Source: an uncultured Bacilli bacterium (GTDB lineage: Bacteria > Bacillota_I > Bacilli_A > RF39 > UBA660). Taken from it: a stretch of 64,000 nt of DNA. Of this stretch, positions 27,485 through 27,770 are shown piece after piece. The DNA is taken from the NCBI GenBank assembly GCA_934086485.1, contig CAKOIF010000004.1, forward strand, positions 14,777-78,776, given 5' to 3'. The position numbers and the translations under genes are program-made. The notes beneath the pieces are model-generated. The model saw nothing but the letters and a program-made list of their open reading frames with translations. It was not told the origin of the DNA and did no database searches. Each line of letters begins with the position of its first letter. Within the stretch, counting starts at the first letter, position 1.

Positions 27485-27567
27485 TATTATAGGAAGCCAA
27501 AGTAAAGCGGGCGCTACCACTACTTACAATCAAGGTTAGAAATAATCAAAAAAGGAGTTGGTGATCA

Positions 27568-27651
27568 ATGACATTAAAATTCAAAAATGACCTACTTATA
27601 ATTATTATTTTCATCTTATGTGTCATTATTGCAACTCTTGTTTTAAATTAA
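27568..27651 (+). CDS. 27-aa hydrophobic peptide (candidate type I toxin-like small membrane protein)
   Basis: ATG preceded by AAAAGGAGttggtgatca. Peptide MTLKFKNDLLIIIIFILCVIIATLVLN. Below the ORF-track size cutoff, so found by eye. Confidence 0.5.
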   Translation: MTLKFKNDLLIIIIFILCVIIATLVLN

Positions 27652-27770
27652 AATGCGCCTTAATCTATATTTGCTTATAGATTAAAGCGACTATCTCTAA
27701 ACAGGTAGCGCTCGCAAAGAGTTTACGAGTAAGCTTCCTTTTTTATTTTATGTAAGTTTTTCTCTTACAT
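27645..27770 (-). ncRNA. Candidate cis-antisense sRNA, copy 1 (~125 nt)
   Basis: Promoter TTGAAA(27803-27798)-17-TGcTATATT(27780-27775). 5' hairpin AUGUAAG/CUUACAU (27770-27750). Conserved GCGAGCGCUACC box. Terminator hairpin 27689-27655 followed by a U-rich run. Overlaps the ORF stop codon. Confidence 0.55.

Follow-up and report, generated by a model that had tools for sequence, protein, structure and literature searches.

Does a small transcript that appears to encode a hydrophobic mini-protein fold back so that its two ends pair with each other, and if so, what might this closed form do? The question arises from two similar cassettes in a window of 64,000 nucleotides (the whole stretch of DNA analysed here) from an uncultured Bacilli bacterium. 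We approached it by RNA folding, by comparison with homologous cassettes, and by considering how the predicted antisense RNA of each cassette would interact with the transcript.

Cassette layout and the closing helix

The draft genome carrying the window is 1.34 Mb in size and very AT-rich. Its close relatives in databases are "Mycoplasma sp. CAG:472" or uncultured Bacilli from the human gut. In the window, sigE and spoIIGA are located between a large surface-protein gene and ftsZ, and the spoIIGA-sigE pair is bracketed by two homologous cassettes at 27456-27803 (copy 1) and 29612-29966 (copy 2). The features of the region, in window coordinates, are as follows.

27456-27484, plus strand: copy 1 toxin-mRNA promoter (TTGACA, 17-nt spacer, TG-extended TATCAT; 11/12 matches)
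27491-27497, plus strand: copy 1 outer 5′ arm, AGGAAGC, paired with GCUUCCU at 27733-27739 in the MFE and centroid folds
27502-27518, plus strand: copy 1 middle (GUAAA) and inner (GCGGGCGCUACC) 5′ arm
27519-27521, plus strand: ACU directly 3′ of the copy 1 5′ arm, a local anti-SD element
27553-27558, plus strand: copy 1 Shine-Dalgarno (SD) sequence, AAGGAG
27568-27651, plus strand: copy 1 hydrophobic ORF of 27 aa
27646-27803, minus strand: copy 1 antisense RNA gene (promoter TTGAAA-17-TATATT at 27803-27775)
27656-27689, both strands: hairpin directly 3′ of the copy 1 stop codon
27704-27726, plus strand: copy 1 3′ inner arm GGUAGCGCUCGC, 6-nt bulge (27716-27721) and UUUAC
27733-27744, plus strand: copy 1 3′ outer arm GCUUCCU running into the U-tract, the presumed toxin mRNA 3′ end
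27815-28501, minus strand: sigE
28488-29246, minus strand: spoIIGA
~29405-29567, minus strand: orphan antisense-only copy that keeps the 3′ arms, promoter and terminator and lacks the 5′ arm and toxin ORF
29612-29640, plus strand: copy 2 toxin-mRNA promoter
29647-29675, plus strand: copy 2 5′ arms (outer 29647-29655 and 29657-29660, inner 29662-29675)
29701-29816, plus strand: copy 2 SD (GAGGUGGU) and hydrophobic ORF of 34 aa (29712-29816)
29812-29966, minus strand: copy 2 antisense RNA gene (promoter TTGACT-17-TATATT at 29966-29938)
29867-29907, plus strand: copy 2 3′ arms (inner 29867-29880, outer 29889-29902) and U-tract

Each full cassette carries on its plus strand a promoter, a 5′ leader, an SD and a hydrophobic ORF of 27 or 34 aa. 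The stop codon is followed by a hairpin that constitutes an intrinsic terminator on the minus strand, then by a conserved segment ending in a U-tract, and finally by a minus-strand promoter (TTGAMW-17-TATATT). The toxin-mRNA promoter is a strong sigma-70-type promoter (TTGACA, 17 nt, TG-extended TATCAT), which in copy 1 places the predicted start of the mRNA at ~27490-27492, and the same arrangement is present in all aligned units. The predicted toxin peptides are 25-34 aa long, combine a charged N-terminus with one hydrophobic helix, and are conserved in frame; the frame is retained across three peptide subtypes.

On the minus strand, the signals predict a three-hairpin antisense RNA of ~120 nt that would lie over the last ~98 nt of the plus-strand transcript. 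In copy 1, this RNA is predicted to run from ~27768 to 27646 and to form a 5′ hairpin, a middle hairpin and the terminator (-36.3 kcal/mol, z = -5.1), overlapping the mRNA 3′ UTR with both 3′ arms included. Its copy 2 counterpart is predicted from ~29931 to 29812. The hairpin at 27656-27689 serves both strands: the minus strand reads it as the antisense terminator, with a 14-bp stem followed by the T-run CAUUUUAAUU, and the mRNA carries the complementary stem-loop. Judged by these sequence signals, the cassette layout is that of a type I toxin-antitoxin-like module with a 3′-overlapping antitoxin, predicted to consist of a ~255-nt mRNA for a 25-34-aa membrane peptide and a convergent ~120-nt antisense RNA over the mRNA 3′ UTR.

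The original prediction had drawn two helices that close the mini-ORF transcripts, and its positions were correct throughout both copies. In copy 1, the outer helix is followed by a middle helix (27502-27506 with 27722-27726) and an inner helix that extends in RNAfold to 27507-27518 with 27704-27715. The core of the latter, CGGGCGCTACC at 27508-27518 and GGTAGCGCTCG at 27704-27714, comprises 11 bp with one G-U (G27510-U27712). In copy 2, AGGAAGT at 29647-29653 pairs with GCTTCCT at 29896-29902, and 29664-29674 pairs with 29868-29878. The C-to-U change in this copy is indeed tolerated as a wobble (U29653-G29896), as had been proposed, and the suggested extension of the outer helix to 14 positions with one mismatch was borne out as 13 bp plus one C-A mismatch (29647-29660 with 29889-29902). 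The full partners of the copy 2 5′ arms in RNAfold are 29894-29902, 29889-29892 and 29867-29880. The closing helix is thus made up of 7 + 5 + 12 bp in copy 1 and of 9 + 4 + 14 bp in copy 2, and a bulge on the 3′ strand is present in both copies. The 11-mer box and its complement occur five times in the window, against 0.03 expected.

When the two intervals were folded with RNAfold, both helices appeared in the MFE and centroid structures of both copies, as had been anticipated. The energies were -70.1 kcal/mol (z = -6.39) for 27491-27745 and -80.5 kcal/mol (z = -8.44) for 29647-29908, with z-scores calculated against dinucleotide shuffles, of which 0/200 folded as well; these intervals had been picked in the original prediction to end at the helices, and independent signals give the same ends. 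Pairing begins 6 nt beyond the end of the -10 box and includes, as its final base, the first U of the sole plus-strand U-tract. When transcripts were instead defined from promoter to U-tract, the closing helix formed in 26/26 units tested, and the closed fold was more stable than the best fold with local pairs only by 10-22 kcal/mol. The helix begins 5-7 nt past the -10 box and stops at the U-tract in all lineages. We are highly confident that the first ~30 nt of the toxin-like mRNA pair with its last ~45 nt and that this helix exists as an RNA structure.

Homologues, covariation and the level of selection

We scanned genome and metagenome collections using a pattern based on the antisense-promoter region, which avoided selecting on the helix sequences. 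The scan yielded ~60 full units from the genus, with 43 distinct 5′/3′ end combinations, together with divergent lineages. Full cassettes were found in 8 or 9 of the genus's 22 species, and the genome containing the window has four of them plus several orphans. A search around one divergent genome added 18 units from more distant gut Bacilli with genomes of ~1 Mb; these encode a different peptide type (MKKRxFIxKVLRYIAIILFLL..VIKK) and have quite different arm sequences. The 5′-3′ pairing is kept in all ~60 genus cassettes and in the ~18 distant ones despite the differences in the paired sequences. The 3′-strand bulge also recurs in all lineages and is 7 nt long in most.

Full units had a 5′/3′ duplex energy of ~-27 to -44 kcal/mol, orphans one of -9 to -20 kcal/mol. 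Orphan copies, in which the 5′ half is absent, form a natural control for this energy. The 3′ inner box is canonical in 58/60 full units and compensated in the other two, whereas it deviates in 14/21 orphans.

Within the genus, 89% of alignment cells at the helix positions were paired, compared with 36-50% when partners were slid, and 0/500 shuffles matched this; in this and the following alignments the sequences are related, and the cells are not independent events. Double-sided changes were seen at four pairs (AU/UA, GC/AU, CG/UA and AU/GC), and the outer helix showed one-sided (G-U) variation only. When four divergent lineages were added, 96.5% of cells were paired and 16/19 pairs were compensated, with 0/500 shuffles matching. 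The register of this cross-lineage alignment was anchored at +1, the helix junction and the U-tract and was set from predicted duplexes, so it is structure-guided.

RNAalifold gave a consistent picture on plain MAFFT alignments: the inner helix was recovered in clade 1 and both helices in clade 2. The full-length clade 1 alignment mis-registers the 3′ outer arm, which limits RNAalifold there to the inner helix. For this reason, end-only alignments were also made with an N placeholder for the interior, and their register is partly structure-guided. The clade 2 alignment was a plain MAFFT alignment of the ends, with the interior removed, and showed 10/22 pairs compensated. Double-sided support for the outer helix comes from the structure-registered alignment or from this clade 2 alignment. 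Taken with the folding models, these data indicate that the two closing helices proposed around the mini-ORF transcripts are genuine, that they sit at the ends predicted for these transcripts and that covarying changes have preserved them.

An alternative is that the arms belong to a small mobile or duplicating element as its terminal inverted repeats, kept alike at the DNA level by a recombinase or by gene conversion. The arms are indeed inverted repeats in the DNA, and the cassette is multi-copy, with four full copies and orphans in a 1.34-Mb genome. However, the non-Watson-Crick cells of the two helices, read on the toxin-sense strand, are overwhelmingly G-U, with 88 G-U cells against 11 A-C cells, 7 of the latter being at the terminal pair. 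The toxin-sense duplex was also more stable than that of the complementary strand in 23/26 units (mean -37.8 vs -32.5 kcal/mol), an advantage clearest in the divergent lineages. In addition, both promoters lie outside the repeats, the repeats hold conserved bulges and begin exactly at the predicted +1, and orphans retain one arm only. We therefore consider the mobile-element explanation very improbable, and rejected it on the G-U/A-C asymmetry and the stability of the sense-strand duplex. Together with the location of the promoters and the relaxation of the 3′ inner box in orphans, these two features of the aligned sequences point to selection on the fold of the toxin-sense (plus-strand) RNA and not on DNA inverted repeats.

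Local hairpins, translation and the antisense RNA

Each arm can also fold on its own. No separate plus-strand terminator was found in 27300-30000 besides the U-tract abutting the 3′ arm. When the last ~40 nt were folded alone, a hairpin formed from the two halves of the 3′ arm (GG.AGCGCUCG...CGAG..GCU.CC), with its base at the U-tract and an energy of -6 to -14 kcal/mol in all lineages. In copy 1, the last 46 nt gave such a hairpin abutting the U-tract at -10.6 kcal/mol, and the local alternative of copy 2 had -9.0 kcal/mol. Similarly, the first ~30 nt alone formed a 5′ hairpin in most lineages. These local hairpins and the closing helix are mutually exclusive. The columns of the local 3′ hairpin are almost invariant, and no covariation signal can be obtained from them.

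It could be argued that the two local hairpins are the only functional structures, as a 5′ stabiliser and a 3′ intrinsic terminator, and that the long-range complementarity is a by-product whose closed form is rarely populated in vivo. Both hairpins are predicted in every lineage, the 3′ one abutting the U-tract; strand exchange over ~200 nt may be slow, and ribosomes or kinetics might prevent the closed form. Yet two independent hairpins need no mutual arm complementarity of ~25 bp, and the closed form is favoured by the 10-22 kcal/mol noted above. Moreover, the 5′ and 3′ arms covary at pairs 26-43, 22-47 and 14-63 even though these positions are unpaired in the local hairpins; therefore, the closed form itself is under selection. 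The equivalent helix P1 of Bacillus subtilis bsrG has also been shown by probing (PMC3834814). We regard a purely local function as quite unlikely.

The closed form and the local hairpins might instead be successive states of one RNA. Four segments would then act as a strand-exchange switch, in which the terminator hairpin consists of the halves of the P1 3′ arm, the 5′ hairpin consists of the halves of the 5′ arm, and both isomerise into the closing helix after release. The mature toxin mRNA would then have no free terminator hairpin. The G-U at inner-helix pair 20-49 is invariant in 43/43 distinct 5′/3′ end combinations of the genus. U49 is Watson-Crick paired in the local terminator hairpin, as is G20 in the type-B 5′ hairpin. 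Conserved wobbles such as 20-49 support a strand-exchange switch, and they also make the antisense RNA the better partner of the 3′ arm. We propose the switch tentatively, as a possibility that falls well short of being probable.

We then considered translation. The original prediction had noted that ACCA beside the 5′ arm could pair with UGGU in the SD region; this pairing is present, and RNAalifold places AC(U/C):GGU beside the inner helix, with alignment columns 29-31 paired to the GGU of GAGGUGGU. In nascent-transcript folds of copy 2 and of one further copy (C10), nt 28-31 were the partner of the SD. In most units, the SD is paired with a short anti-SD just 3′ of the 5′ arm (nt 28-34), which reads ACU or CACU in the genus and CCUCC in the second clade. 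Copy 1 is an exception: in its MFE fold, codons 19-24 of the ORF (27620-27639) are the partner of the SD and AUG (27553-27574). A possible third helix, joining the SD to the spacer that precedes the 3′ inner arm, was also considered, and its complementarity was inconsistent between units.

The predicted SD was ~80% paired in most units, whether the transcript was closed, 3′-truncated or blocked by antisense RNA. Its mean unpaired probability was 0.20 in the closed and 0.21 in the opened form (39 units). Blocking of the 3′ UTR raised the share of SD pairing that goes to the anti-SD beside the 5′ arm from 0.48 to 0.68 and left accessibility unchanged. The closing helix as an SD gate was dropped as a main function, as the closed, 3′-truncated, antisense-blocked and growing-transcript folds gave no consistent change. 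In these models, folding lends no support to a translational role or to a hok-like on/off lock, and it speaks neither for nor against a bsrG-like lengthening of the SD helix upon antisense binding, which is only weakly predicted.

The antisense RNA had been described as carrying a near copy of the mRNA 5′ box with which it competes for the 3′ partner. The sequence in question, CGAGCGCUACC, is present and is the complement of the 3′ box. The antisense RNA resembles the 5′ arm because it is complementary to the 3′ arm, so the mimicry follows automatically from complementarity and is no independent observation. Competition between the antisense RNA and the 5′ arm is, on the other hand, a necessary consequence: cofolding of the mRNA with the antisense RNA gained ~-92 to -96 kcal/mol over the separate folds, the potential duplex is ~95 bp, and the 5′ arm then refolds locally.

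These results also bear on a hok- or aapA-type explanation, in which the closing helix would keep the full-length mRNA untranslated and refractory to antisense RNA until slow 3′ trimming activates it. End-to-end pairing in a type I toxin-like mRNA is a hallmark of hok and of aapA1/aapA3 (PMC5416894, PMC6733600), the closed form is very stable, and metastable 5′ hairpins are predicted to exist. However, the antisense gene lies over the 3′ arm and not over the 5′ leader; therefore, 3′ trimming would delete the target of the antitoxin. Furthermore, the SD stays paired to the extent given above with the 3′ arm present, truncated or sequestered, its partner being the local anti-SD and not the 3′ end. 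The hok-type fold-back logic of the original prediction is not supported by these two findings (antisense over the 3′ arm; SD accessibility of 0.20 vs 0.21), and we judge an activation mechanism of this kind to be unlikely.

Taken as a whole, the locus is probably best explained by a P1-like closing helix in a type I toxin-antitoxin-like module with a 3′-overlapping antisense RNA and strand-exchange folding. What was computed directly is the helix, its location at the predicted ends, the covariation within it and the competing local hairpins. The order of folding, a stabilisation of the mRNA, a role for a nuclease and a toxic action of the peptide we infer. While the mRNA is being transcribed, its 5′ arm would first form a weak 5′ hairpin, and the adjoining short anti-SD would pair with the SD. 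The halves of the 3′ arm would then form the local hairpin at the U-tract, leading to transcription termination. Subsequently, the terminal hairpins would swap strands to give the far more stable closing helix, burying both RNA ends and making the toxin mRNA compact, long-lived and poorly translated. The antisense RNA, a perfect complement of the 3′ arm, would probably nucleate at two sites, the stem-loop that follows the stop codon and the 3′-strand bulge. It would then displace the 5′ arm and generate a duplex of ~95 bp, a putative RNase III-type substrate. The freed 5′ arm could refold into its hairpin and might lengthen the anti-SD:SD helix.

To our knowledge, probing has established a P1-type 5′-3′ closing helix in two B. 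subtilis prophage toxins only, bsrG and bsrE. The present analysis shows that uncultured gut Bacilli with reduced genomes have an undescribed, putative toxin/antisense family in which such a helix is conserved and backed by covariation, and it places ~80 natural sequence variants of the closing helix at hand. It also points to a compact design whose terminator hairpin and closing helix have nucleotides in common. The family may serve as a model of how 3′-overlapping antitoxins can influence the 5′ end of a toxin mRNA, and it provides a signature for metagenome searches (-10 box, 5′ arm, mini-ORF, antisense terminator, 3′ arm and U-tract). If the strand-exchange switch is true, an antitoxin that binds the 3′ UTR would flip the whole fold by branch migration and so act at a distance on the 5′ end and the SD, and the switch would represent a design that is ancestral and widespread among the type I modules of Bacilli.

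Comparison with described toxin-antitoxin systems

No member of a described family was found. When both strands of 26500-30500 were compared with Rfam (E <= 10), the matches were at chance level and no family emerged. Scans of the peptides against Pfam, NCBIfam and PHROGs (E <= 10 or 1) brought up no known toxin family and no homologue of BsrG/TxpA or BsrE/BsrH, which is a weak negative given that short peptides are hard to match, and a Pfam scan of the cassette peptides revealed no Hok-family peptide.

In hok mRNA, metastable 5′ hairpins form during transcription and the extreme 5′ and 3′ ends are paired (PMC3834814, PMC6733600). The cassettes resemble hok/Sok of plasmid R1 in this respect, as the extreme 5′ end of a toxin-like mRNA pairs with its extreme 3′ end (tac-fbi type). 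The full-length aapA mRNA is locked by a 5′-3′ long-distance interaction, and few single-stranded nucleotides explain its stability; during transcription, successive metastable hairpins sequester its SD (PMC5416894, PMC6733600). The 5′-3′ long-distance lock is thus shared with aapA1/IsoA1 and aapA3/IsoA3 of Helicobacter pylori. In both hok and aapA, however, the antisense RNAs target the 5′ side, and 3′ processing is the activating step (PMC5416894, PMC6733600). Sok is directed at the 5′ leader and IsoA complements the 5′ UTR, whereas the antisense RNA here overlaps the 3′ end, covering the 3′ UTR and 3′ arm. Release of the SD upon loss of the 3′ arm, unlike in hok, is not predicted by folding. 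In aapA the 3′ end itself sequesters the SD, whereas the partners of the SD here are local and, in copy 1, lie inside the ORF.

Probing of bsrG showed that 5′ nt 1-35 are paired with 3′ nt 232-262 in the bulged helix P1, and that the SD is in a 4-bp helix beside P1 (PMC3834814); bsrE has the same architecture (PMC6562991). The antisense RNA SR4 overlaps the bsrG 3′ region, and binding begins at the SR4 terminator loop and continues at the 3′ part of P1 (PMC3834814). In SR4-bound bsrG, nt 1-33 are single-stranded and the SD helix is lengthened to 8 bp, a lengthening shown for bsrG only (PMC3834814).

The cassettes differ from bsrG and bsrE in several respects. They have no separate terminator stem-loop (SL4) 3′ of P1, the U-tract following directly after the 3′ arm, and their sole local 3′ hairpin re-uses the two halves of the P1 3′ arm. 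Their hosts are uncultured gut Bacilli with genomes of ~1-1.4 Mb. Nevertheless, the similarities extend over most of the module. As in bsrG/bsrE, there is a small hydrophobic ORF, with an antisense RNA that is here predicted from sequence signals, and a helix that joins the first ~35 nt of the toxin mRNA to a segment on its 3′ side, supported here by MFE folds and covariation, with internal stem-loops branching from a bulged P1. The convergent antisense RNA lies over the mRNA 3′ end including the P1 3′ arm (~98 nt predicted here, about 100-140 nt there), the loop of its terminator complements the mRNA stem-loop beside the stop codon, and its binding frees the 5′ arm (by cofolding here). The SD may likewise sit in a short helix by P1, since AC(U):GGU adjoins the inner helix. 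The closing helix, ~25 bp long, bulged, and joining the first ~30 nt (at or next to +1) to the last ~45 nt, would by this analogy be the equivalent of bsrG/bsrE P1, and helix P1 of B. subtilis bsrG/SR4 (and bsrE/SR5) is its closest described relative.

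An invariant wobble and a predicted SD lock in copy 1

The closing helix pairs the first ~30 nt of the mRNA with its last ~45 nt, and its inner part carries a central G-U wobble at the following window positions:

27510/27712, inner-helix G-U wobble of copy 1
29666/29876, inner-helix G-U wobble of copy 2

This wobble (pair 20-49 in the alignment) did not vary in any of the 43 distinct end combinations (43/43). Both of its bases have Watson-Crick partners in other structures: the local terminator hairpin, formed by the two halves of the 3' arm, provides one for U49, and the type-B 5' hairpin provides one for G20. 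An invariant wobble with such alternative partners would be expected of a multi-state RNA.

In copy 1, the SD and AUG (27553-27574) are predicted to pair over 20 bp with 27620-27639, which are codons 19-24 of the same ORF, at an unpaired probability of 0.01. In this folding model, the in-ORF lock would not depend on the closing helix.

Antisense genes and orphan copies

The antisense RNA genes (within 27646-27814 and 29812-29966) are co-directional with sigE and ftsZ, respectively, each starting directly after the stop codon of its neighbour. As no canonical terminator was found between these stop codons and the antisense genes, read-through from sigE or ftsZ could contribute to the antisense transcripts, ending at the antisense terminators.

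Antisense-only orphans were also observed:

window 29405-29567, orphan antisense-only copy
genome G000, contig C12, 29343-29487, orphan antisense-only copy
genome G000, contig C9, 34255-34405, orphan antisense-only copy

Orphans retain the promoter, 5' hairpin, 3'-arm complement and terminator, and lack the 5' arm and toxin ORF. They often lie immediately upstream of a full cassette, a layout seen again in other species (genomes G008, G009, G014 and G015). Uncompensated substitutions in the 3' box were present in 14 of 21 orphans.

Module combinations and a second clade

Across an alignment of 22 units, the 5'/3' end pairs fall into two types, GUAAA/UUUAC and CCGUU/AACG, and so do the antisense terminators; these types are found combined with at least four peptide types. 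Judged from these sequences, the cassettes appear to be shuffled as modules, and scaffold and ORF seem to evolve semi-independently.

A second, larger cassette clade (loci L217-L242, L077 and L089) occurs in the divergent-lineage genome G041, in G042 and in their relatives, which are other ~1-Mb gut Bacilli MAGs. The L077 MAG (CAZEVZ010000006.1) is labelled 'uncultured Muribaculaceae'. Given its size of about 1.0 Mb and its appearance among the relatives retrieved for the Erysipelotrichaceae-labelled MAG, this label is probably wrong. The second clade encodes a conserved 30-aa peptide (MKKRxFIxKVLRYIAIILFLL..VIKK), has a perfect anti-SD CCUCC immediately 3' of the 5' arm, and its 3' arm opens with an SD-like GAGG/AGG.
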